Source of the DNA: Gemmatimonadota bacterium
Lineage (GTDB): Bacteria; Gemmatimonadota; Gemmatimonadetes; Gemmatimonadales; GWC2-71-9
Assembly: GCA_016199245.1 (NCBI GenBank)
Contig: JACQHC010000054.1
Coordinates: 1-53,907, forward strand
DNA length: 53,907 bases
Direction: 5' to 3'
Of the stretch, positions 14,213-24,170 are shown one piece after another. Below the pieces are notes generated by a model that saw only the letters and a list, made by a program, of their open reading frames with translations, was not told the DNA's origin and did no database searches. Position 1 is the first letter of the stretch; each line of letters starts with the position of its first letter. A program made the position numbers and the translations under genes.

Positions 14213-16315
14213 ATGAAGATCGTGCATGTCCTCAGCGGCACGGTGCTCGCGGCGCTCGCCGCAAGCTCCGCCATCGCTCAGCAGCGTCCCATCTCGTCCG
14301 TCGACTACTACCGCCTCGTCACCGTCTCGGAGCCGAGCGTGTCGCCATCAGGCGCGGCTGTGGCGTTCACCGTGACGACCGTCGTCGAGGACAAAGACCG
14401 CCGCCATCGCGAGGTGTGGCTCGCGCCTGCCGACGGCACGGCCCCTCCCTATCGCCTCACCAGCGTCAGCACTGAGGGCTCCAACGCGCGCTGGTCCCCG
14501 GATGGCTCGCTCCTCGCCTTCAGCAGCCGGCGTGACAGCGCGGGCGTTGAGGACGACGACGGCGTGTGGTTCCTCCGAACCGGCGCGCTGGCAGGGGAGG
14601 CGTTCCGGATTAGCGGCGTGCACGCCGCGCCGGTGTGGTCCCGGGACGGGGCGTGGATGGCGTACCTCTGGGCCGGCGCGGTCCCGGACACTGTACAGCG
14701 CGATCCCCGCCGCGGCTGGGTGGCGCCGGACGCCATCACCCGCGGGCCAGACCCCAAGCGGTTCGACGGACGGGTGATCACGCACGTCCCGTACAAGGCG
14801 GATGGACAGGGGTTCCTGCGCGACGTGCGGAGCGAGCCGCGTCAACACATCTACGTGGTGCCTGCCGCCGGAGGCGAGCCGCGGCAGCTCACATCCGGGC
14901 AGCTCGCGCAGCGCAGCATCGCATGGTCGCCCGACGGCCGATCCATTGCCTTCGTGCAGGACTCGACCGACGAAGACGAACGGCGGCTGGATCAGCACCC
15001 GGACATCTACCTGGTGGACGTCACGACCGGCGTCCTGCGGCGGCTCACGACCGACCCCGGCTACCACACCAATCCGGCTTTCTCGCCGGATGGCCGCACC
15101 ATCGCCTACAACTGCTCGGCGGGACGCGGGCAACCCAACGACATGTGCGTGATGCCGGTGGCCGGGGGAGAACCGCGCAACCTCACGAGGGAGTGGAACC
15201 TCGACCCCGGCGCGCCGGCGTGGTCCACCGACGGTTCCACCATTTCGTTCAACGCGGACACCGAGGGGAACGTGCACCTGTTCCGCATCCCTGCCCGCGG
15301 CGGCCAGGTCACGCAGGTCACCCGCGGCCTGCGACAGCTTGGCGGGTTCTCGGCGAGCGTCGATGGCAAGATGATGGCCTTCGCCGCGAGCGACATCACT
15401 CACCCGAGCGAGTTGTTCGTGGTGCAGGGCGACGGCAGCGGCGAACGGCGGTTGACGAGCTTCAACGATCGATACCTCGCGGAGGTCACCGCGATTCCCG
15501 CGGACACGATCTGGTACACCAGCGTGGGCGGAGCGAGAATCCACGGGTGGCTCCACAAGCCGTACGCGTACGAGCCCGGCCGGAAGTACCCGCTCGTGCT
15601 CTACATCCACGGCGGGCCACACGGCCAGTACGGCAACGTGTACTTCCATGAGTTCCAGATGCTGGCGGGCCAGGGGTACTGGGTGCTGTTCACCAACCCG
15701 AGGGGATCTACCGGTTACGGTCACGACTTCACCTACGCCACACGCCTGCGGTGGGGCATGGAGGACTACGAGGATCTCCTGAAGGGCGTGGACGAGGTGA
15801 TTCGTCGCACCGGCCAGGTGGACACCACGCGGATGGCCGTACTGGGCGGTTCCTACGGCGGCTTCATGACGAACTGGATCCTGGGCCATACCAACCGATT
15901 CGCGGTGGCGCAGACCGACCGATCCATTATGAACTGGTTCTCGTGGTACGGGTCGTCCGAGGCCCAGGGGCTCACCGAGTACGAGTTCGGCGGCTTTCCC
16001 TGGGATCAGGATTCGCTCTACTGGGCGCTGTCACCCCTCAAGTTCGTGAAGAACATGCGAACCCCGCTCCTCATCGTACACAGCGAGGAAGACCACCGCA
16101 CGCCCATCACGGACGGCGAACAGCTGTTCATGGCGCTCAAGAAGCGAGGCGTGCCCGTGGAGTTCGTGCGCTATCCGCGCAGCTCGCACGGACTCTCGCG
16201 CACGGGGCCGCCGTGGCTCCTGGTGGATCGGTTGGAACGGATTCGCACCTGGTTCGCGCACTGGATCGGGACGGGATCGGCACCGGCGCGGGCTGCGAGC
16301 GGCGGAGCGCGATAG
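14213..16315 (+). CDS. S9 family peptidase (prolyl oligopeptidase/acylaminoacyl-peptidase type), secreted
   Basis: Signal peptide, beta-propeller region with repeated SPDG motifs, and the catalytic nucleophile motif GGSYGG. Confidence 0.9.
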   Translation: MKIVHVLSGTVLAALAASSAIAQQRPISSVDYYRLVTVSEPSVSPSGAAVAFTVTTVVEDKDRRHREVWLAPADGTAPPYRLTSVSTEGSNARWSPDGSLLAFSSRRDSAGVEDDDGVWFLRTGALAGEAFRISGVHAAPVWSRDGAWMAYLWAGAVPDTVQRDPRRGWVAPDAITRGPDPKRFDGRVITHVPYKADGQGFLRDVRSEPRQHIYVVPAAGGEPRQLTSGQLAQRSIAWSPDGRSIAFVQDSTDEDERRLDQHPDIYLVDVTTGVLRRLTTDPGYHTNPAFSPDGRTIAYNCSAGRGQPNDMCVMPVAGGEPRNLTREWNLDPGAPAWSTDGSTISFNADTEGNVHLFRIPARGGQVTQVTRGLRQLGGFSASVDGKMMAFAASDITHPSELFVVQGDGSGERRLTSFNDRYLAEVTAIPADTIWYTSVGGARIHGWLHKPYAYEPGRKYPLVLYIHGGPHGQYGNVYFHEFQMLAGQGYWVLFTNPRGSTGYGHDFTYATRLRWGMEDYEDLLKGVDEVIRRTGQVDTTRMAVLGGSYGGFMTNWILGHTNRFAVAQTDRSIMNWFSWYGSSEAQGLTEYEFGGFPWDQDSLYWALSPLKFVKNMRTPLLIVHSEEDHRTPITDGEQLFMALKKRGVPVEFVRYPRSSHGLSRTGPPWLLVDRLERIRTWFAHWIGTGSAPARAASGGAR

Positions 16316-16472: not shown

Positions 16473-18029
16473 TCAGCGCCGCGCAGCCGCAGCTCGTTCG
16501 ATCCCTTCCACGGTCTTCGGCGCGGCGGCCGAGAGGTTCTCGTACCCGGCGTTCGTTACCAGGATCATGTCCTCGATCATGATCCCGAGGCCTTTCTCCG
16601 GGATGTAGAGCTTGGGCTCCACGGTGAACACCATCCCGGCGGCGAGCGGCAAGGAGTAGTCGCGGCTGTCGGTGGCGTCGAGGCCGATATGGTGACCCAG
16701 GTCGCGCACGCCCATTCCGGTCGCGCTGTAGCGAGTGAGCCCGCCGTTGCGGGCGAGATAGTGGGTGGGTGAGGGCATCAGACCCCACACGCTCTCCTCT
16801 CCCATGCGGTTCACGTCTTCGTACTGCTCGAGGCCGTGCTTCCGATACACAGCCGCGGCGGCCTTGATCACGTCGACCATCATCACCCCCGGATGAATCG
16901 CGGCGAGGGCGGCTTCCTGGGCTTCGAGCACGATCTCGTAGAACCTGCGCTGTTCGTCGCTGAACTTCCCCGAAACCGGATACGTGCGGCACACATCCGA
17001 GGCGTAGGTCATGTACTCCGCCGCGCCGTAGTCAATGAAGACCAACTCGCCATCCTGGATCACGCGGTCGGTGGAGTTGTAGTTCTCCGACCGGAGCGTG
17101 AACAGGCTCACGGCGCCCGGTCCCGACATCACGATTGGCGTGAACGCGGCGCGGGGCGATCCCTGGCGCTTCCAGGAGTACTCCATGAGCCCTGCGACCT
17201 CGAGCTCGTTGATGCCCGGGCGCAGCGCACGCAGCACATCGGTGAAGCTCTGGGCACTGATTTGAGCCGCGCGCCGGAGGGCCGCGATCTCGTGCTCGTC
17301 CTTGATCAGGCGCATGCGATGCACCAGGGGCGTCGCGTCGGCGATCGCCCGCCCCGGGAGCGCGTCCAGCAGAGATTGCTCGTACTGCTGGCGAATGGTT
17401 TTGGGGCGCGACAAACCAGCAGGTGCATACAACTCGGCACCGTCCCGAGTCAAATACACCGTTCGCGCCGTTCCGACGATCTCTAGAAGCCGCATCGCCA
17501 GTTCGTCGATGGGCAACGTCTCGCCGATGCCGGTCGCCCGTTCAGCCTCCGGGCCCGGGCTCAACCGCCGGATAGGCTGGTTCCACGCGGCGCGGCGGAA
17601 CCGCTCGTCCTGCATGGGAAACTGCCCGCCGGCGAACTGAAAGCGCTCAGGGACGAACAAGACTTCCCTTCTGCCGCCCATGCGGCCGATGCCGCTCATG
17701 CCGCCACTTCCACCTTCCGGGCCAATCACCAGCACCGCGTACGGCGACTCCACACCCGTCAAATACCAGAAATCCGAATCCTGTTTGTCCCGCCCGCCGT
17801 TGGCGATGAGATAGGCGCCCGGAACCACGACCGCCGCATTCGGCTCGAGCTGGCTCACGAGGCGTGCGCGGCGCGCGGCATAGACCTCCGAGGGGAACGC
17901 CACGTCGCTCTGAGGAGCCGCAGGCTCCACAGCCAGCGCAGACATGACGCACAGCGCCCCGCAGACACGCCGAACCACCGGCGCCCCGGAGCGCATTTCT
18001 CGAATCCTACTGAGTCTCGCCTCACGCAT
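16473..18029 (-). CDS. M24 family Xaa-Pro aminopeptidase, secreted
   Basis: Creatinase-like N-domain plus an M24 metal-ligand region (FIDYGAAEYMTYASD, GHHIGLD, FTVEP, IEDM). Signal-peptide-like N-terminus. Confidence 0.88.
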   Translation of the reverse strand: MREARLSRIREMRSGAPVVRRVCGALCVMSALAVEPAAPQSDVAFPSEVYAARRARLVSQLEPNAAVVVPGAYLIANGGRDKQDSDFWYLTGVESPYAVLVIGPEGGSGGMSGIGRMGGRREVLFVPERFQFAGGQFPMQDERFRRAAWNQPIRRLSPGPEAERATGIGETLPIDELAMRLLEIVGTARTVYLTRDGAELYAPAGLSRPKTIRQQYEQSLLDALPGRAIADATPLVHRMRLIKDEHEIAALRRAAQISAQSFTDVLRALRPGINELEVAGLMEYSWKRQGSPRAAFTPIVMSGPGAVSLFTLRSENYNSTDRVIQDGELVFIDYGAAEYMTYASDVCRTYPVSGKFSDEQRRFYEIVLEAQEAALAAIHPGVMMVDVIKAAAAVYRKHGLEQYEDVNRMGEESVWGLMPSPTHYLARNGGLTRYSATGMGVRDLGHHIGLDATDSRDYSLPLAAGMVFTVEPKLYIPEKGLGIMIEDMILVTNAGYENLSAAAPKTVEGIERAAAARR

Positions 18030-18295: not shown

Positions 18296-18324
18296 TTGAC
18301 AGGCGGGACGGTAGGTTCTATGGT
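18296..18324 (+). promoter_or_regulatory. candidate sigma70-like promoter of the MarR gene
   Basis: TTGACA (18296..18301), a 17-nt spacer, then TATGGT (18319..18324). An unusually AT-rich 23-nt stretch follows (18325..18347, GGTA...TACC ends). This geometry argues against the listed TTG 18324 start. Confidence 0.4.
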
Positions 18325-18347
18325 TGGTACTAACAACTATTATACCG

Positions 18348-18863
18348 ATGCCAGCCACCACCGCCGACCGTCCAACAACCCTGCTCTCCGCCAGCCTGCG
18401 TCGGGACGGGAGGGCGCTCGCCCATGTCCTGTCCGAATTGGGCCGCCTGTACCAGTTCCACGACCGTGACTGCATTTGTTGCTACGACGTTTCGGTCACG
18501 CAATGCCGCGCCCTCGAGCTGCTGGCCGAGCGCGGGCTGATGACGCTCAACGAGCTGGCGGCGGGTCTGTATCTCGACAAGAGCACGACCAGCCGAGTGG
18601 TGGACGCGCTGGAGCGGAAGGAGTACGCGCGACGCAAGGCACATCCCGCGGACGGGCGCGCGGTGCGGGTCGAGCTGTCGCATCGAGGACGGGGCCTGGT
18701 GCAGCGCATCGAGGACGACCTCGCCATGCGTCACGCCGGCCTGCTTGCCGAGTTCAGCCCGGACGTCCGGCAGGCGGCGATTCGTCTGCTGTCCCAGCTC
18801 GCCGAAGCCGCGGCGCAGCGGGTGCAGACGGTCGGAGGGAAGTGTTGTGTGGTCGATCGATGA
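18348..18863 (+). CDS. MarR-family transcriptional regulator with vicinal-cysteine motifs
   Basis: MarR winged-helix block (LNELAAGLYLDKSTTSRVVDALERKEYARRKAHPADGRAVRVELSHRG). It also has DCICCYD near the N-terminus and ends in GGKCCVVDR. Confidence 0.85.
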   Translation: MPATTADRPTTLLSASLRRDGRALAHVLSELGRLYQFHDRDCICCYDVSVTQCRALELLAERGLMTLNELAAGLYLDKSTTSRVVDALERKEYARRKAHPADGRAVRVELSHRGRGLVQRIEDDLAMRHAGLLAEFSPDVRQAAIRLLSQLAEAAAQRVQTVGGKCCVVDR

Positions 18864-18952
18864 CGCGCGCCGAGCGGTGCACGAACGGTCCCCAGGCTGA
18901 AGGCTGGAGTGGAGAGTCCGAACCATGAACGGTCGAAAGGAGGTGAGCGTCT

Positions 18953-19000
18953 ATGGGCAACTGGGATTGCTGCCCGCCGGGCTGTTGCGGCGGTGACTGA
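18953..19000 (+). CDS. unlisted 15-codon tetracysteine micro-ORF, MGNWDCCPPGCCGGD
   Basis: ATG 18953, TGA 18998..19000. AAGGAGGTGA at 18937..18946 gives near-ideal spacing. It lies 90 nt downstream of the MarR stop and is followed directly by a long hairpin. Confidence 0.4.
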   Translation: MGNWDCCPPGCCGGD

Positions 19001-19004
19001 ACAG

Positions 19005-19101
19005 ACAGGCGATGAGAGCCGACGATAGCCGATGTCGGTCGACGATGGCGACGGAAGCTGACGTGGGCCGCCGTCGGCTTACGTCGGCTCCCGTCGCCTG
19101 T
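19005..19101. repeat. inverted pair of 3 x 10-nt unit arrays (REP-like), probable bidirectional terminator
   Basis: Left arm ACAGGCGATG AGAGCCGACG ATAGCCGATG (19005..19034). Right arm CGTCGGCTTA CGTCGGCTCC CGTCGCCTGT (19072..19101). About 25 of 30 positions are complementary. TTCGTTCTT follows the right arm. Confidence 0.6.
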
Positions 19102-19107
19102 TCGTTC

Positions 19108-21219
19108 TTACCGCCCGTTCCCCACCGCCGCCGCGATCAAGCGCCGCTCGAAGAACTCCGCCGTCGCCCGATACGCGGCAAGCCAGCTCCGGTGCAACAA
19201 GAAGCCGTGAATCTCGTCCGGGAAGATCAGCTGCTCCACTTCCACGCCGTGCTGCCGCAACGCCGCCACGAGGTCCACGGTCTCGCTGAACGGCACGTTG
19301 CGGTCGTCGTCGCCGTGGATGACCAGCACGGGCGATCGCCACGTGTCGACCGACGACATGGGCGACGACTGGAACGCCAGCCGCGCCACCTCGGCGCGGG
19401 CGGCGGGGTCGTAGTCCGGCTGAAAGTTGCGAATCACGATGTTCCAGTCGTGAACCCCATGCACGTCCACGCCCGCGGCAAACAGATCCGAGGCCCGCGC
19501 GAGCCCCAGCGCGGTCAGGTAGCCGCCGTACGATCCACCCCACAGGCCGATCTTCCCCGGGTCCACGTCCACACGGCTGCGGAGATACAGCCCGGCTCCC
19601 ATCACGTCATGGAACTCGCTGGCACCACGCGCGCCGTAGTTCAACGCCTCGCGGAATTCGAGCCCGTAGCCCGTTCCGCTCCGATAGTTCACCGACAAGA
19701 CGATGAACCCGCGGCTCGCCAGGTACTGGTTCAGCGCGTACGCATTGTGGTAGTACCCCAGATAATGGAAGCCCAGCAGCATCTGCCGGCGCGATCCGCC
19801 GTGGAAGAAGAGAATGGCCGGGCGGCGCTGGCCGGTCTGCATATCTCGCGGGCGGAACAACTGACCGTGGATCGGCAGTCCGTCGGCACCCGAGAAGATC
19901 ACCTGCTCGGGCTCGACCAGCGCGCGTGAAGGGAAGTCCGCTGGCATGGTCTCGGCAGCCAGGCTCCGGCGCGCGGCACCAACGCCGGCGGGAATGACTT
20001 CCGCCCGGGCGGGCGTTCGCGCATCCGACGCCAGGAACGCGACCGACCCGTCCTCGGCAGCGACCGGAGCCCACTCGATCCCGCGGCCGGTGGTGACCGC
20101 GACGGGCTGGCCTCCCATTACAGGGACACGCCAGAGATGCCGTCGATCGATGTCACCCTGATTCGACGAGTACACCACCTCTCGCCCGCCAGTGCCGAGT
20201 GCCACGTGCTCCACCTCAAACGCGCCGGGCGTGAGATGCGTGGGCTCACCGCCCGCGACCGGCACGGCGTAGAGTTGAATCCAGCCGTTTCGCTCCCAGG
20301 GGAACACCAGTCGATCGCCGGCAGCCCACATGATCTCGTGATCGCCCTCGACGCCCTGGAACACGCTGCCCCGCCCCGTCGCAGCGCGCCACACCTCGCG
20401 GCCCGCGCCGGTCGTGACATCGGTCACGCGAATAGACCAGGGCTCGCCCTCCCGCAGCGGCATGAACGGCAACCGATCCCGCTCGTTCGCCATCCGCGTG
20501 AACGCGATGCGCCGCCCGTCCGGCGACCACACCGGGTTGCCGTCCCGATCCACCGACGGATCGAGGTACTGCAGGCCCTGATCGGCCACTCGATACACGC
20601 CGATGAAGCTGTGATCCCCGCGATTGCTCACGAAGGCGAGAGCGCTCCCATCCGGTGACCACGTCAGCGAACCCGCCGAGCCGCGGATCTCGAACATCTG
20701 CTTGGCGGGACTAGAGTCCGTGAGTGACGCGGACCATACCGCGCCCCGGCGAAGGAAGGCCACCACGCTGCCGGCTGGTGAAACGGCGGGATTGCTCCCT
20801 TCGGCGAGCTGTCGCGGCTCGCCACCGGCAGTGGCCACCACCCAGATCGCCTGACGGGAGCCCCGGGGATCACTGGTGGGGTTCGGGATCTCACTCTGGC
20901 GATTGGGACCACCGCCGCGCACGTACACGATCCATCGGCCGTCCGGGCTGAACCGGAGTGACGTCAGGTCCTGCCCGTTGTCGTCACCGTACCGGGTCGC
21001 CTGGCGCGCGCCATACTGCGGCCCCTCGGCGACCCAGATGTTCCGCACGCCGGCCGCGTTCTGCACCCAGGCCACCGTTGACCCCCGCGACGCCGCGACC
21101 AGCCCCGTGGGGAACGGGGCGCTCATGACCTGCTCGATCCGGAAGCCCTGCTGCGCCACCGCCGGCCGGAATGCCGCGCTTATCAGGGCGCCTGCCACCC
21201 ACATGGCGTGCCGTCTCAT
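19108..21219 (-). CDS. S9 family peptidase with N-terminal beta-propeller, secreted
   Basis: Signal peptide, TolB-like propeller repeats (SPDG), and nucleophile motif GGSYGGY. The start ATG overlaps the helicase stop (ATGA). Confidence 0.9.
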   Translation of the reverse strand: MRRHAMWVAGALISAAFRPAVAQQGFRIEQVMSAPFPTGLVAASRGSTVAWVQNAAGVRNIWVAEGPQYGARQATRYGDDNGQDLTSLRFSPDGRWIVYVRGGGPNRQSEIPNPTSDPRGSRQAIWVVATAGGEPRQLAEGSNPAVSPAGSVVAFLRRGAVWSASLTDSSPAKQMFEIRGSAGSLTWSPDGSALAFVSNRGDHSFIGVYRVADQGLQYLDPSVDRDGNPVWSPDGRRIAFTRMANERDRLPFMPLREGEPWSIRVTDVTTGAGREVWRAATGRGSVFQGVEGDHEIMWAAGDRLVFPWERNGWIQLYAVPVAGGEPTHLTPGAFEVEHVALGTGGREVVYSSNQGDIDRRHLWRVPVMGGQPVAVTTGRGIEWAPVAAEDGSVAFLASDARTPARAEVIPAGVGAARRSLAAETMPADFPSRALVEPEQVIFSGADGLPIHGQLFRPRDMQTGQRRPAILFFHGGSRRQMLLGFHYLGYYHNAYALNQYLASRGFIVLSVNYRSGTGYGLEFREALNYGARGASEFHDVMGAGLYLRSRVDVDPGKIGLWGGSYGGYLTALGLARASDLFAAGVDVHGVHDWNIVIRNFQPDYDPAARAEVARLAFQSSPMSSVDTWRSPVLVIHGDDDRNVPFSETVDLVAALRQHGVEVEQLIFPDEIHGFLLHRSWLAAYRATAEFFERRLIAAAVGNGR

Positions 21220-24170
21220 GGTTCGTCTCCGTTGATTGCTTTGTCAGGACCGTCCGCAGCGTGGGCCGCGGGAAGAGCCAAGTCTACGACCTCGAGTCCC
21301 ATTTCGCCGAGAAACCGGCTTCCGCCTGTCGGCAGGCCGCCGCGGCGGTGAGCGCGCGTCAGGACCAGCCGATCCTCGGCCCTGGTCATCCCGACATAGA
21401 GCAGGCGCCGTGCCTCCTCGATCTCACCGCGCCTGAGCTCCTTCTGCGGCCCACCCAGCAGCTCGGCATCCTCGACAGCCGTGATGTACACGCGCGAGAA
21501 CTCGAGCCCCTTCGTGGCATGCAGCGTCAGCAGGTTCACGCGGTCACGGGCGGTTGCGATCCCTTCCGAACTGGACAGCGCCACGCGCTCGAGAAACCAG
21601 TCCAGGCTTTCGTTGAGCGTGGGTGCGCTACTCGCATCGATCAGCACGTCGAGCCGGGCCATGGAAACGGGATACCGCTCGGCGAAATCGGTCTCCGCGC
21701 GGAGCCGCTCCATCCGCCGGCGACCTCCCAGTCGGTCAATCACCTCCTCCGTCGCCGGCAGGTCGCCGCGACCGAGCCGAGCGCGCTCCTGCTCGTAGAA
21801 CTCCAGACAATCGCTGTAGCGGCCCAGCGTGTACGCCCCGGCGATCGTGCGCAGCAGTTCGGTTTCCTCGCCGGATGCCGCCGGCTCGAGGGCCAGGGCA
21901 AGGCCCAGGTAGTCCAGCAGGTTGGTCATGCCGGCCTTGCGGGACCGTTCCGCGCGTCGCCGCTCCAGCGCCTGCCCGACGGCCACGAGTGTCTTCGCAT
22001 CGTCCAGTGCGTGGTGCGCCCGGCCGACTGGAATCCCGAATCGTTCGGCCAGCGCGCCCAGGCCGGCGCCGCCGGGAACGATGGCGCGGGCCAGCAGCAG
22101 CGTGTCATAGAACGCCAACCGCTCAAACCCGCCGAATGGCTCGGCGGCGCGCCGCAGCACCGGGATGTCGAAGCGCTGGGCATTGTGCGCAACAAGCAGG
22201 TCATCGCCCACGAACGCCCGAAAGGCTGCCCACACCTCGCCGAAGCCCGGTGCTCCAGCCAGATCGGCTTCCCCGTACCCATGGGCCTCGCGCGCACCAG
22301 CGGTGATCGGAACGGTGGTGCGAACCAGCGATCGGAATTCGTCCACGGCCTCGCCGTTGCGCACGCGCACCGCGGCGATCTCCACGATCTCGCAGTGCGC
22401 CGGATCCCGGTCGGTGGTCTCCAGATCGAAGGCCACGTAGTTCCGGAACGCGGGAGCCTCGACCGATGTGTACAGCACCTGAAGCGCCTTGAACAGCGTG
22501 ATGCCCAGGCCAAGCGGTCCGGCCGCATCTGTTCCCAGCACCAGATCGCCCAGTTCCAGCTCCGCGCGCGCACCGACATAAGCCACGCCCGCCCAGCCGG
22601 CGGCGAGCAACATGCCGCGCAGCGCCACTTCCACACCGTCATCCGACTCGAGCCACACGCGCCCGCCGGCCGCATGCGTGCGCCGCAGACTGTCGGCCAG
22701 CCGGAGCGAGGCCCCCGTCGCGGGATCGCTCAGGTCTTCCTCGCGTTCCTCCAGGACGTTGCGATACCGCGTCACCCGCTGCTGCAACAGCACCTGGATC
22801 AGGGCGCGCAGGCTCGCGTGCTCCCGGCCGAGGCCTGAGAGGTTCTCGGCCTGGAACACGAAACGCCAGGCGCGCCTCCCGTCCGCGTCCCCTCGGCCCC
22901 GGCGGCGACCGATGCGCCGCGCGGCAGCGATCATGTCGCCGTCCGTCTCGCGAGTCTCCGCGCGGAGTTCCTCCCGCAGGGGCATCGGCAGCACGACCTC
23001 CGCCAGTGCCTCGAGGGCGGCCGGGTCGCGCGGCGACCGCATCAAGCGGACCCCCGCGACGACGGCTTTCACGATCTCGTCGTCCAGCAGGGCGCGTTTG
23101 GGCGCCAGGCGGCACGGCACGCCAGCCCGGAGCAGCTGGCGCTCCACCAGCGCGCCAACATCGTGCTTGCGATAGAGAATAGCGTAGTCGCCCCAGCGGC
23201 GGTTCGTGGCCCCCCGATCCGCCACCAAGTCGGCCGCGATCCAACGGGCCTCGTCCAGCTCATCGGGGAACGCGAACGCTCGCACCTCGTGCTCGGACTC
23301 CCCGGTCGCCCGCAGTTCCTTTTGGAACAGCGGCTGATTCGCTTCGATCAGCCGCCTCGCCGCGGTGAAGATCTGCCGGGAGCAGCGCCGGTTCTCGTCC
23401 AGGACGATGGGCCGCTCGATGGCGAAGTCCGTCGCAAACCGCCGCAGGACCTCCGGGCTGGCGCCGCGCCAGGTGAAGATGGACTGCTCGTCGTCACCGA
23501 CGGCGAACACACGACGGTGCGCGCCGGCGACCTGGCACACAATGCTGTACTGCGCCGCGTCGAGGTCCTGAAACTCGTCCACCAGCACATGGTCCCAACG
23601 GGCCGCCACGGACGCCGCCACGGTCGGATGCCGTTCCAGCAATTCCGCAGTGAGCGCGATCAGGTCGTCGAAATCGAGCAGCTCGCGCTCCCGGAGATAC
23701 GCGATGTAGCGGGGGAACAAGCGTGCGTCGGTGCCAACGAGGTCGCGCCCGGCCAGGCGGTGCCGCCCGAACGCCGTGAGCACGGCGCCACGCCGCTTCG
23801 GCGGCCATACGCCCAACCGCCCCAGCACGCCGGACTGATACGCCTCGTCCGCGATCCCGAAGCCCGGCTTGAGACCGATCGCGGGCCCGTGCCCCCGAAG
23901 CACGTCCACGCACAGTCCGTGCAGCGTCCCGCGGGTCACCTCCGCGGCGACACCCCCCAACTCCTCGCGCAGCCGCGTGGCAACTTCCTCTGCCGCCTTG
24001 TTCGTGAACGTGACGGCGCAGATCCGCTCAGGACGGACACCGTGGTGACGGATGAGATGAGCGACGCGACCGATCAGGCAGTACGTCTTGCCCGCGCCCG
24101 GCCCCGCCAGCACCAGAACAGGACCGAGTGGGGCCGTGATCGCGTCACGCTGGCGGCCGGAGGCGGGCAT
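21216..24170 (-). CDS. UvrD/Rep-family helicase with an internal DEDDh (DnaQ-like) 3'-5' exonuclease domain
   Basis: Helicase motifs GPGAGKT, VTFTNKAA, VLVDEFQD, GDDEQSIFTWRGA, then LHATKGLEF and YVGMTRAEDRL. Exonuclease motifs FDLETTD, LVAHNAQRFD and HHALDDA lie at residues ~578-735 (about 21966..22439). Confidence 0.88.
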   Translation of the reverse strand: MPASGRQRDAITAPLGPVLVLAGPGAGKTYCLIGRVAHLIRHHGVRPERICAVTFTNKAAEEVATRLREELGGVAAEVTRGTLHGLCVDVLRGHGPAIGLKPGFGIADEAYQSGVLGRLGVWPPKRRGAVLTAFGRHRLAGRDLVGTDARLFPRYIAYLRERELLDFDDLIALTAELLERHPTVAASVAARWDHVLVDEFQDLDAAQYSIVCQVAGAHRRVFAVGDDEQSIFTWRGASPEVLRRFATDFAIERPIVLDENRRCSRQIFTAARRLIEANQPLFQKELRATGESEHEVRAFAFPDELDEARWIAADLVADRGATNRRWGDYAILYRKHDVGALVERQLLRAGVPCRLAPKRALLDDEIVKAVVAGVRLMRSPRDPAALEALAEVVLPMPLREELRAETRETDGDMIAAARRIGRRRGRGDADGRRAWRFVFQAENLSGLGREHASLRALIQVLLQQRVTRYRNVLEEREEDLSDPATGASLRLADSLRRTHAAGGRVWLESDDGVEVALRGMLLAAGWAGVAYVGARAELELGDLVLGTDAAGPLGLGITLFKALQVLYTSVEAPAFRNYVAFDLETTDRDPAHCEIVEIAAVRVRNGEAVDEFRSLVRTTVPITAGAREAHGYGEADLAGAPGFGEVWAAFRAFVGDDLLVAHNAQRFDIPVLRRAAEPFGGFERLAFYDTLLLARAIVPGGAGLGALAERFGIPVGRAHHALDDAKTLVAVGQALERRRAERSRKAGMTNLLDYLGLALALEPAASGEETELLRTIAGAYTLGRYSDCLEFYEQERARLGRGDLPATEEVIDRLGGRRRMERLRAETDFAERYPVSMARLDVLIDASSAPTLNESLDWFLERVALSSSEGIATARDRVNLLTLHATKGLEFSRVYITAVEDAELLGGPQKELRRGEIEEARRLLYVGMTRAEDRLVLTRAHRRGGLPTGGSRFLGEMGLEVVDLALPAAHAADGPDKAINGDEP

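Follow-up and report, generated by a model that had tools for sequence, protein, structure and literature searches.

The subject of this analysis is a 53,907-nt stretch of DNA from a Gemmatimonadota bacterium, hereafter called the window, in which a gene for a MarR-type regulator with the hallmarks of the arsenic-responsive MarR_ars subfamily is followed by a micro-ORF of 15 codons, lying far below the cut-offs of gene calling. The encoded peptide, MGNWDCCPPGCCGGD, has two vicinal pairs of cysteines separated by Pro-Pro-Gly, and the micro-ORF is under selection at the protein level. We consider it rather probable that the region forms a self-contained operon of two genes, autoregulated and derepressed by metalloids, the final product of which would be a ribosomal thiol peptide that sequesters trivalent arsenicals or hands them on. 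The features of the region are collected in table 1.

Table 1. Features of the regulator and micro-ORF region, in positions of the window
Feature	Position	Strand	Remarks
-35 box TTGACA of the marR_ars promoter	18296..18301	+	Promoter scan
-10 box TATGGT	18319..18324	+	Promoter scan; TATAGT in most orthologues
Operator palindrome TGGTTGGTACTAACAACTA	18321..18339	+	Overlaps the -10 box and the likely transcription start
marR_ars (most likely start)	18348..18863	+	171 aa from ATG 18348; longest in-frame start, TTG 18324
Extended Shine-Dalgarno site AAGGAGGTGA of the micro-ORF	18937..18946	+	
Micro-ORF, MGNWDCCPPGCCGGD	18953..19000	+	15 aa; start ATG, stop TGA
Long imperfect hairpin	18999..19107	.	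Fills the gap between the stops of the micro-ORF and of the convergent S9 peptidase gene
S9 peptidase gene, convergent	19108-21219	-	

The Regulator and Its Promoter

The initial annotation had placed the beginning of the regulator gene at 18296, but this position belongs to the -35 box and, judging from the orthologues, translation most likely begins at the ATG given in table 1. The cysteine motifs noted earlier, DCICCYD and KCCVVDR, are indeed present in the product, which ends in GGKCCVVDR and has cysteines at C42, C44, C45, C53, C166, and C167 (numbered from this ATG). It matches the Pfam model MarR (PF01047) with 52.6 bits against a cut-off of 24.6 (E 4.3e-14), whereas the model HTH_5 (arsR, PF01022) gives 18.2 bits, below its cut-off of 22, so that the protein is of MarR rather than ArsR type. 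Among 26 relatives sharing 50-83% identity, C44, C45, C53, and C166 never vary, and C167 is almost constant (at least 90%). In the AF2 model (mean pLDDT 84), which has the canonical six helices plus wing, the alpha1-alpha2 loop carries the CxCC motif, and the C-terminal tail that bears the CC pair is disordered; the matches in the PDB are generic MarR structures only.

The MarR_ars subfamily comprises repressors that respond to As(III) and Sb(III), as characterized for AdMarR_ars of Achromobacter sp. As-55 (Yu et al. 2021, bioRxiv 10.1101/2021.08.12.456183). AdMarR_ars represses its own gene and is released from DNA by As(III) or Sb(III), mutagenesis having shown that Cys36, Cys37, and Cys157 are needed for the response to As(III), while its relatives adjoin arsV, arsN, and other ars genes (Yu et al. 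2021). The cysteines of our regulator align with Cys36/37 and Cys157/158 of WP_003109836.1, a 49%-identical MarR protein of a Pseudomonas ars island in which the residue numbers agree with those of the AdMarR_ars paper. The regulator thus carries the hallmarks of the subfamily, and the presence of the equivalents of Cys36, Cys37, and Cys157 supports by homology the earlier proposal of a thiophilic, metalloid-responsive regulator, the cysteines of which would bind the metalloid. Both proteins have the MarR fold, a vicinal cysteine pair before helix alpha2, and C-terminal cysteines (some MarR_ars tails read GCCPPSGC), and the autoregulation of AdMarR_ars may have its counterpart in the operator predicted in the window. 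The window differs in that its locus lies outside any ars island, with no ars homologue found within 54 kb, in that its clade of regulators has the additional cysteine C42, and in that the only gene predicted to be co-transcribed is the cysteine-rich micro-ORF. The paper on AdMarR_ars mentions no arsM targets, operator sequence, or peptide (Yu et al. 2021).

The promoter TTGACA-17 nt-TATGGT has 10 matches out of 12, one such site being observed against 0.1 expected, and the sequence cTTGAC[ACG] recurs at constant distance from the operator in nine orthologous loci. The family consensus of the operator is TAGTTG-N7-CAACTA; in the 54-kb window, its 15-bp core GTTGGTACTAACAAC (18323-18337) is the sole match to GTTGTTANTAACAAC when up to three mismatches are allowed, with 0.12 expected. 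Across the family, the palindrome either immediately precedes marR or follows its stop by about 20 nt, before arsM, and it is found also at three promoters of the Pseudomonas ars island. A palindrome that overlaps the -10 box family-wide suggests that the gene would be repressed by its own product.

The Micro-ORF

We confirm in the sequence both the micro-ORF and the Shine-Dalgarno site that the initial annotation had reported, the distance from the MarR stop being 89 nt instead of the 90 nt given before. The reading frame is ATG GGC AAC TGG GAT TGC TGC CCG CCG GGC TGT TGC GGC GGT GAC TGA, with cysteine in 4 of its 15 codons (27%), and its ATG follows the end of GGAGG after 9 nt. From the predicted transcription start to this ATG there are about 600 nt, and the Shine-Dalgarno site precedes the ATG; hence the ORF is not leaderless. 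Among the 1264 ORFs of 8-40 codons that the two strands of the window contain, it is alone in having at least two CC pairs and is one of just 26 with GGAGG upstream; AGGAGGTGA has a single occurrence on the + strand of the window. Since 15 residues are too few to be scanned with family models, longer relatives of 25 and 32 aa were compared with Pfam and NCBIfam, which returned no Pfam family and no NCBIfam match above threshold, metallothionein models included. Plasmids searched by tblastn with the 25-aa relative gave no match either, possibly owing to low-complexity filtering. In the literature on MarR with arsM, on CCPPGCC, and on small cysteine-rich proteins of ars operons, no mention of the peptide was found. 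The micro-ORF appears to be new; the earlier statement that no such module had been described holds for the peptide partner but not for the class of its regulator, which was already known.

Nine of nine loci retrieved by MarR homology alone (61-83% identity of the regulator) carry the micro-ORF with the core CCPPGCCGG[D/E]; beside orthologous MarR genes it is thus neither absent nor frameshifted, and the CCPPGCCGG core varies only synonymously. All seven variable columns of the 30-nt core fall on third codon positions (Fisher p = 5.9e-5), with two of the glycine codons showing all four bases, and the residues other than cysteine, namely PPG, GG[D/E], and an acidic residue ahead of the first CC, persist through synonymous changes. 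The variants, of 15, 16, 19, and 25 aa, are separated by whole-codon differences and start with ATG or GTG, while their flanks, including the spacer and the hairpin, cannot be aligned between loci. Some relatives reach 40% cysteine, as in the 25 aa with 10 Cys of bacterium HR33, and another, from an Ignavibacteria locus, has 11 Cys in 31 aa. The start signals are equally constant: GGAGGTGA precedes the start in 10 of 10 loci, with 8-9 nt from GGAGG to the start codon, and AAGGAGGTGA is invariant in an alignment of four genomes despite indels of more than 40 nt in the spacer upstream. These features suggest that the micro-ORF is translated.

A hairpin follows directly after the micro-ORF, as previously noted, but its arms (18999-19044 and 19062-19107) are imperfect and of 46 nt each, with 78% complementarity, rather than of 30 nt, and the T-rich tail is weak. 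Its MFE is -77 kcal/mol, with a fold z-score of about -6.3 to -6.7, and in every orthologue a strong hairpin of unrelated sequence begins within a few nucleotides of the micro-ORF stop. A terminator scan detected no canonical hairpin with U-tract; the long hairpin probably acts as a bidirectional terminator or a 3' stabilizer. Its Rfam matches to microRNA precursor models of plants and animals are spurious (35.8 bits vs. a gathering score of 168), and the whole window has neither Rfam matches above threshold nor tRNA.

The Slot of arsM and the Probable Link to Arsenic

What could connect this peptide to arsenic? Searching the window by tblastn with ArsM, ArsN1, ArsV-like, ArsD, ArsA, ArsR, ArsC, ACR3, ArsB, ArsH, and ArsQ produced nothing at E <= 1e-3; for ArsM the best E was 3.3, the micro-ORF having only the cysteine motif and no SAM-dependent methyltransferase domain. 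Given that the 54-kb window has no other recognizable ars gene, the link to arsenic rests here on the homology of the regulator and on the equivalence of the gene slot downstream of it. In the family, this slot is occupied by arsM at about 58 loci (44 of the 73 in the scorable set), the encoded protein matching NF008823 with 366 bits against a cut-off of 263. Elsewhere it holds a gene for an ArsN2-ArsM fusion or for a FAD-oxidoreductase, which may resemble ArsV, its best family match being a weak ArsO. The wider neighborhoods include arsM, ArsN2-ArsM, arsN1/arsD/arsA, arsRC/ACR3, and arsQLM, and three plasmid relatives of the regulator lie in ars or arsinothricin clusters. Some members of the family are followed by a gene for a SoxC-type sulfite dehydrogenase, in view of which the signals of the subfamily may be broader than arsenic.

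The peptide resembles the N-terminus of ArsM in its CC-x3-CC motif, and the two share the regulator family, the slot, and an operator-controlled promoter. ArsM proteins encoded behind sister regulators carry SCCGxxCC at their N-terminus, several have an extra N-terminal CCGPECC module, and two carry ASCCPPGCCGD, that is, literally the CCPPGCC of the micro-ORF. As a free-standing peptide of 15 aa without a methyltransferase domain, though, the product of the micro-ORF could bind arsenicals but not methylate them.

The identity of the downstream gene covaries with one residue of the regulator. Behind all 12 regulators that bear C42 (DC-ICC) there is a micro-ORF with cysteine pairs, and in none of them is arsM directly downstream; regulators with Arg in this position are followed by arsM (44), other genes (17), or, once, a micro-ORF. 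In the neighbor-joining tree, C42 together with the micro-ORF occupies essentially one clade plus one long branch, corresponding to 1-3 independent events, and we have consequently downgraded this covariation as independent evidence of a physical partnership.

Recurrence in Other Phyla

A scan for CCPPGCCGG over 185,579 species genomes, conducted with a loose DNA pattern, gave 32 stretches, most of which were discarded as off-frame in GC-rich DNA without a start codon or as lying inside long frames. Six small ORFs were judged genuine, a count that leaves out a few Actinomycete matches with an in-frame start (L111, L128, L139), dismissed without closer study: three are from Gemmatimonadales, one from bacterium HR33, one from Zixibacteriota, and one from Saprospiraceae. 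All six directly follow the gene of a cysteine-bearing regulator of the MarR or ArsR/SmtB type, the regulator being of ArsR type in the Zixibacteriota and Saprospiraceae genomes. Two Zixibacteria with ArsR regulators 93% identical are especially instructive. They have the Shine-Dalgarno site and the terminator in common, and the slot between regulator and terminator contains a 25-codon micro-ORF in one and arsM in the other; this micro-ORF did not arise by deletion from the arsM of the other genome, which, together with the absence of arsM similarity in the window, led us to reject an origin as an arsM relic.

Downstream of the micro-ORF, a convergent S9 peptidase gene comes next both in the window and in the syntenic loci L001, L002/L024, L107, and L110 and the P0003 contigs; L108 and L109 likewise have a convergent gene there, whereas in HR33 and L025 a methyltransferase gene on the same strand follows the micro-ORF and its hairpin. 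Genes for proline-specific peptidases, M24 and S9, flank the micro-ORF in the window. A functional link to these peptidases was considered and rejected, the synteny being limited to one clade of Gemmatimonadales and absent in L105, L108, L025, and L102.

Discussion

The mechanism that we favor for the region would be the following. A repressor of the MarR_ars type would bind the palindrome over the -10 box of its own promoter, until As(III), Sb(III), or an organoarsenical (methylarsenite, for instance), bound by C42/C44/C45, possibly C53, and the C-terminal CC, releases it. A bicistronic mRNA would then be made, in which the marR leader of about 16 nt has no Shine-Dalgarno site and the micro-ORF has a nearly perfect one, so that the peptide would be translated far more strongly than the repressor. 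MGNWDCCPPGCCGGD would be the CC-x3-CC thiol motif of arsenite methyltransferase N-termini in free-standing form, chelating one As(III) via three thiolates or two R-As(III), one per vicinal pair. The peptide could either buffer the metalloid or pass it to other detoxification proteins, and the fall in free metalloid would restore repression. Because each peptide would bind one or two metalloid atoms at most, sequestration would need very high expression.

How else could a cysteine-rich micro-ORF behind such a regulator be explained? The peptide might be a partner of the sensor which delivers, removes, or bridges the metalloid for MarR_ars, as a co-sensor, anti-repressor, or metallochaperone tuning the threshold of induction. 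The association of micro-ORFs with C42 regulators (12 of 12, never with arsM directly) and the tight coupling of the two genes, the TGA stop of MarR falling inside the Shine-Dalgarno site of the micro-ORF in four relatives, speak for such a partnership. Yet the association amounts to 1-3 events in the tree, regulators of the unrelated ArsR architecture also have CCPPGCCGG micro-ORFs, and the replacement of an enzyme gene, arsM, agrees better with an effector than with a regulatory subunit, for which reasons we regard this role as unlikely. The ORF might instead act in cis. Short cysteine-rich ORFs can function as regulatory devices and PPG is a known ribosome-pausing motif, so that pausing at the Cys codons (4 of 15), sensitive to Cys-tRNA or thiol status, or at PPG could govern the hairpin and, through it, the stability or read-through of the mRNA. 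This would suit the hairpins that start at the stop codon in every orthologue and the same-strand methyltransferase genes beyond them in HR33 and L025. In the window and its syntenic loci, however, the next gene is convergent, leaving nothing downstream to attenuate; moreover, the non-cysteine residues are maintained through synonymous changes, the motif occurs also within proteins (at ArsM N-termini and in the tails of regulators), and the micro-ORF is located 3' with a Shine-Dalgarno site, being neither leaderless nor 5'. An action in cis hence seems to us quite unlikely.

Nor do we find much probability in a general micro-metallothionein for soft metals (Cu(I), Cd(II), Hg(II), or Zn(II)) or a thiol redox buffer without specificity for arsenic. 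The cysteine content of 27%, rising to 40% in relatives, the known pairing of regulators with metallothioneins, as in SmtB/SmtA, and the failure to find any ars gene in the window would all agree with it, and Cu(I), Cd(II), or Hg(II) could be the metals that the peptide prefers. It is set against the response of the MarR_ars subfamily to As(III) and Sb(III), with an arsenic-centered regulon, the specific exchange of the micro-ORF with arsM, and the vicinal CC pairs that are typical of arsenical sites. Least probable of all, in our judgment, is that the ORF exists by chance, is the decaying remnant of the 5' end of a lost arsM, or encodes the precursor of a RiPP or metallophore, even if the position is that of arsM, the motif is similar to ArsM N-termini, and the micro-ORF of the window is flanked by genes for the proline-specific peptidases M24 and S9. 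The start, stop, Shine-Dalgarno site, and amino acid core are kept in 10 loci, down to 61% identity of the regulator, with synonymous changes only, and no similarity to arsM is seen in the window. The neighborhoods vary from lineage to lineage and contain peptidase, TPR, NHL, and methyltransferase genes only, with no conserved maturase or exporter and no gene of radical-SAM, YcaO, or MNIO type, while the peptidase synteny is confined to a single Gemmatimonadales clade. To judge from the sequence comparison, conservation largely refutes this last group of explanations.

The proposed operon for a peptide that sequesters or hands on arsenicals can be compared with several known systems. In SmtB-SmtA, other pairs of repressor and metallothionein, and MymT of M. 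tuberculosis, a winged-helix repressor released by metal controls a small, cysteine-rich, sequestering polypeptide. Known bacterial metallothioneins have about 50-56 aa and bind Zn, Cd, or Cu in defined clusters; here, instead, a peptide of 15 aa with 4 Cys is encoded downstream of a MarR-type regulator with a link to metalloids, and we know of no natural metallothionein-like protein as short as this peptide would be. Vicinal cysteine pairs are ligands of As(III) or MAs(III) in arsenic-regulated operons, as in the sites of ArsD and ArsR, and are shared by the micro-ORF. The folded metallochaperone ArsD, about 120 aa long, supplies the ArsA ATPase, whereas neither ArsA nor ArsB is encoded near the micro-ORF. 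Phytochelatins, too, are short thiol-rich peptides that sequester As(III), but they are made enzymatically from glutathione, whereas our peptide would be made on ribosomes and regulated through transcription of its gene. The engineered tetracysteine tag CCPGCC, in which two vicinal cysteine pairs around a Pro-Gly turn bind the two arsenic atoms of FlAsH or ReAsH, differs from the natural CCPPGCC by one Pro, and by analogy the latter may bind arsenicals as well. The polycysteine short ORFs of mycobacteria, which have leaderless starts at the 5' end of operons, serve to attenuate the genes that follow (bioRxiv 10.1101/834739). They have in common with the micro-ORF their very short length, the consecutive Cys codons, and the GC-rich host; the micro-ORF differs from them in its Shine-Dalgarno site, its 3' location with no gene downstream, and the conservation of its non-cysteine residues.

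The comparative data widen the MarR_ars subfamily to Gemmatimonadota and Acidobacteriota, define its operator, and identify arsM as its commonest target in the sampled loci. To our knowledge, arsenic resistance is among the best-catalogued stress systems of bacteria and no list of ars genes includes a ribosomal micro-peptide. If our reading is true, the micro-ORF would represent a new type of determinant, in which a peptide under direct control of a metalloid sensor sequesters or chaperones the metalloid, and at the same time a natural counterpart of the engineered biarsenical tag. More tentatively, and with somewhat less than even confidence, we propose that CCPPGCC-type micro-ORFs of 15-32 codons encode widespread, unannotated arsenical-binding peptides, a sort of "ribosomal phytochelatin," serving as effectors of MarR_ars and ArsR/SmtB repressors in at least three phyla (Gemmatimonadota, Zixibacteriota, and Bacteroidota) and swapping with arsM. 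Such peptides would possibly protect by sequestration against methylarsenite and other organoarsenical antibiotics, with one R-As(III) bound per cysteine pair, and many more of them could emerge from a systematic search behind the genes of metalloregulators.

Organization of the Micro-ORF Operon

The reading of the micro-ORF and of its Shine-Dalgarno site in the initial annotation agrees with the sequence. Of the 1264 ORFs with 8-40 codons that the two strands of the window contain (GC content 67.6%), it is the only one having two CC pairs, and it belongs to the 26 preceded by GGAGG; such uniqueness rules out a chance feature of GC-rich DNA. The hairpin described behind it is present (fold z-score -6.3), even if its arms are longer and less perfect than the 30 nt proposed, and it takes up the whole gap to the stop of the convergent S9 peptidase gene. 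The T-rich tail is weak, and the terminator scan found no canonical U-tract terminator.

Position 18296, previously taken as the start of the regulator region, is the -35 box of a promoter. The regulator most likely begins at ATG 18348, as in its orthologues, which would leave a leader of about 16 nt without a Shine-Dalgarno site. Allowing three mismatches at most, GTTGTTANTAACAAC is matched nowhere in the 54 kb but at the palindrome core (0.12 expected), and orthologous regulators repeat the upstream arrangement cTTGACn-17/18-TATAGTTGnnAnTnnCAACTA. In the wider family, the palindrome lies just 5' of marR or about 20 nt past its stop, before the next gene.

Features of the operon and its neighborhood in the window
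Feature	Position	Strand	Description
Proline-specific peptidase gene	14213-16315	+	
Proline-specific peptidase gene	16473-18029	-	
Promoter of marR	-35 box at 18296		TTGACA-17-TATGGT; one site found in scan, 0.1 expected
Palindrome core (putative operator)	18323-18337		GTTGGTACTAACAAC, overlapping the -10 box
marR	18348 (most likely start)-18863	+	product ending ...GGKCCVVDR
Shine-Dalgarno site of micro-ORF	18937-18946		AAGGAGGTGA
Micro-ORF	18953-19000	+	ATG to TGA, product MGNWDCCPPGCCGGD
Hairpin	arms 18999-19044 and 19062-19107		46 nt each, 78% complementary
Proline-specific peptidase gene (S9)	19108-21219	-	
984-aa ORF	21216-24170	-	UvrD-type helicase look, internal DnaQ-like exonuclease segment (AFDLETTD...), from translation alone

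Conservation of the Micro-ORF

The check proposed initially, conservation of the micro-ORF beside orthologous MarR genes, found the ORF with its amino-acid core in all nine loci having downstream DNA. These were fetched via the regulator only (61-83% identity) and comprise three Gemmatimonadales genomes, metagenome contig L024 and five contigs with specific MarR homologues; in each, GGAGGTGA and then a short ORF follow less than 100 nt past the MarR stop. The peptide reads MGNWDCCPPGCCGGD/E in loci L001, L002, L003 and L024, MGTWDCCPPGCCGGD in L110, MRGPFECCPPGCCGGD (GTG start) in L107, MPGPFECCPPGCCGGD in L108, MGNWECCPPGCCGGESNCC in L109 and MPVLNCCDCCPPGCCGGETGCCDCC in L105, bacterium HR33.

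In DNA alignments the Shine-Dalgarno site and the micro-ORF form a conserved island, preceded by a spacer with indels exceeding 40 nt and followed by hairpins of unrelated sequence. The 30-nt core has six distinct DNA versions with seven variable columns, all at third codon positions, while the 20 first and second positions never vary (Fisher p = 5.9e-5); all four bases occur in two of its Gly codons, and length differences between loci are whole codons. Such a pattern is what a translated gene shows when purifying selection acts on its peptide, and not what an RNA or DNA element shows. A stop codon inside a downstream Shine-Dalgarno site is the classic coupling arrangement, and in L001, L003, L108 and L025 the MarR frame is extended to ...RR*, with its TGA inside the Shine-Dalgarno site of the micro-ORF. 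We consider it very probable that the micro-ORF encodes a genuine, translated and regulator-linked micro-protein.

The Regulator and Its Relation to Arsenic Genes

The product of the MarR gene carries the DCICCYD and KCCVVDR motifs initially noted and matches PF01047 (52.6 bits, cut-off 24.6), while scoring below threshold with the arsR-type HTH_5 model (18.2 vs cut-off 22). A protein search returned 627 homologues at E ≤ 1e-5, and a metagenome scan confirmed at least 542 among the first 600 candidate stretches. Numbering from ATG 18348, the ICC pair C44 and C45, C53 at the start of alpha2 and C166, the first of the C-terminal GGxCC, are invariant in 26 relatives of 50-83% identity, of which at least 90% keep C167 also. 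In an AF2 model (mean pLDDT 84), the loop between alpha1 and alpha2 holds the CxCC, and the terminal CC belongs to a disordered tail. Cysteines 36, 37 and 157/158 of the closest plasmid MarR align with those of the window regulator and have the same numbering as in the MarR_ars subfamily (Cys 36, 37, 157 type; Yu et al., bioRxiv 10.1101/2021.08.12.456183). By this alignment, the window regulator would be a new member of that described and experimentally characterised subfamily. The paper contains neither arsM targets nor any operator sequence, peptides or Gemmatimonadota.

Arsenite methyltransferase (ArsM) is encoded by the next same-strand gene in about 58 family loci, and in 44 of the 73 that are strictly scorable (366.6 bits vs NF008823, cut-off 263); the micro-ORF lies in the same slot as arsM behind sister regulators. 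Other downstream genes encode an ArsN2-ArsM fusion, a SoxC-type sulfite dehydrogenase and an FAD oxidoreductase, taken to resemble ArsV, whose best family match is a weak ArsO. The fusion is a single ORF (L061, 2105-3448) immediately 3' of the MarR_ars gene, combining an ArsN2 acetyltransferase domain (138.5 bits, cut-off 125) with a full ArsM (362.7 bits). Three relatives on Pseudomonas plasmids (37-49% identity) sit in annotated arsenic clusters: arsN1/FAD-oxidoreductase/arsD/arsA, arsR/arsC/ACR3, and the arsinothricin genes arsQ-arsL-arsM beside arsRBCH. On Pseudomonas amygdali plasmid pPlaYM7902A (L152), the relative (37% identity) is divergent from arsQ-arsL-arsM, for arsinothricin biosynthesis and export, and precedes arsR, an arsenic transporter, arsC and arsH. 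No other ars gene was found in the window; in its clade, the module forms part of an M24-marR-microORF-S9 gene order that is inherited vertically.

ArsM N-termini behind sister regulators read SCCGxxCC, two of them ASCCPPGCCGD; in one ArsM group the enzyme is extended at its N-terminus by a further CCGPECC module, and the C-terminus of some MarR_ars proteins is GCCPPSGC[KE]. Enzyme, sensor and free peptide thus share the motif. Loci of such ArsM or MarR_ars variants are L029, L036, L037, L041-L043; L075/L076; and L078, L096, L098.

In other family members, the position of the micro-ORF is taken by Cys-pair micro-ORFs of another sequence, each behind a strong ribosome-binding site. Their products are MLNCCECC in L025, a peptide of 32 aa with GGGCCGGGGCC at its end in L035, where an operator copy of its own lies upstream, and MGCCDLPFCPTGCC in L102. 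In L088 (1592-1768), a Cys-rich ORF of 50-58 aa (...PCCDSKTQASCCAPAAKSACCGSSAEDNCGCS...) without a clear ribosome-binding site lies downstream of a MarR_ars relative. A class-I SAM methyltransferase follows micro-ORF and hairpin on the same strand in L105 (3720-4346) and the related contig L025 (3028-3735); it is devoid of the ArsM N-terminal Cys region (64.7 bits, ArsM cut-off 263). Cys peptide and methyltransferase may here form a "split" arrangement.

In metagenome contigs L077, L079, L080, L085 and L087, MarR_ars relatives end in ...SCGGGCCSK, and a perfect GTTGTTACTAACAAC operator lies about 20 nt past their stop. L077 and L087, both inspected, have no ars gene downstream; by eye, a SoxC-like ORF follows in L077, and in L087 a gene for a SoxC-type sulfite dehydrogenase (TIGR04555, 535 bits) precedes a cytochrome-c-like ORF (by eye). 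The signals of the subfamily may go beyond arsenic.

Recurrence behind ArsR/SmtB Regulators

DNA coding for CCPPGCCGG was searched in one genome for each of 185,579 species, giving 32 matches, mostly off-frame GC-rich noise. The short ORFs with a start codon that we accepted, leaving out a few Actinomycete matches with in-frame starts, number six (three Gemmatimonadales, HR33, one Zixibacteriota and one Saprospiraceae), each directly 3' of a winged-helix regulator that contains cysteines, and in the same orientation as its gene. In the last two organisms this is an ArsR/SmtB protein (NF033788: 85 and 74 bits, cut-off 55), one of them with a classical CxC site. The scan, which is unbiased, lends independent support to the link with arsenic. 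Close to a natural experiment are two Zixibacteria genomes with regulators 93% identical and Shine-Dalgarno site, terminator and flanking genes in common: Their sole difference is the cassette in between, where one has a 78-nt micro-ORF (MKKQKKEPETGCCCCCPPGCCGGGK) and the other an arsM of about 800 nt.

In L134 (2530-2590, minus strand), a perfect palindrome ATCGTAATATTACGAT that follows a T-run separates the ArsR gene of Saprospiraceae from the CCPPGCCGG micro-ORF, and may mark a separate operator-controlled promoter of the latter. A second conserved micro-ORF family (M[KIM]RYxIPRV[AS]HCCGGS, MKKNMIPRCAHCCGGA, MRRFSIPRCARCCEGA) lies just 3' of ArsR/SmtB genes with Cys-rich C-termini in Zixibacteriota and Ignavibacteriales (L143-L148); in L145 and L146 its start apparently overlaps the regulator stop (ATGA; manual reading). 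Behind an ArsR-type regulator of Ignavibacteria (L142), short ORFs at 1864-1959 and 2010-2081 include AAAGGAGGTGA plus MSQSCCCCTCDEAASKPGAESKCNCCSCKCG (31 aa, 11 Cys) and a further one with a Shine-Dalgarno site, MNWTRRYMLRPVCNCSCGSTTEP.

Alternative Explanations

Could the micro-ORF act in cis, through ribosome pausing at its Cys or PPG codons? This reading is disfavoured because nothing follows it in the same orientation and because conservation extends to non-Cys residues. A partnership of the peptide with the sensor is suggested by the regulators having the extra cysteine C42, which are followed by a micro-ORF in 12 of 12 cases and directly by arsM in none of the 12, but on the tree this covariation comes essentially from one clade. 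It is also possible that the peptide binds soft metals generally. There is no support for reading the micro-ORF as a relic, a chance ORF or a RiPP.

The three peptidases around the operon, one of M24 aminopeptidase P type and two of the S9 prolyl-oligopeptidase family, have signal-peptide-like N-termini (by eye) and flank on both sides a peptide that includes Pro-Pro-Gly. This neighborhood is probably plain synteny, since the M24-marR-microORF-S9 order is conserved only inside the Gemmatimonadales clade.

Proposed Mechanism and Significance

Our preferred explanation, which we hold to be somewhat favored overall, is that of a metalloid-released repressor paired with a metalloid-binding peptide. 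The repressor would occupy the operator over its own -10 box until its loop and tail cysteines bind a trivalent metalloid and release it. A bicistronic mRNA would then be made, and the micro-ORF with its strong Shine-Dalgarno site translated, probably to much higher amounts than the regulator. The two vicinal Cys pairs of the peptide, set on a Pro-Pro-Gly turn, would bind As(III)/Sb(III) or, alternatively, two R-As(III) such as methylarsenite per peptide. With the metalloid buffered or handed on, its free level would fall and repression return. Sequence and genomic comparison support the anatomy of the operon, its operator, the class of the regulator, selection acting on the peptide and equivalence with the arsM slot; the start of transcription, translation, specificity for the ligand and the physiological effect are what we infer.

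Nothing in Pfam, nothing above threshold in NCBIfam and no paper in the literature searched matched the micro-protein, whose 25-aa and 32-aa relatives served for the family scans. A metal(loid)-released repressor that controls a detoxification effector is a known kind of system; its new part here is the micro-protein effector, apparently undescribed and unusually small.
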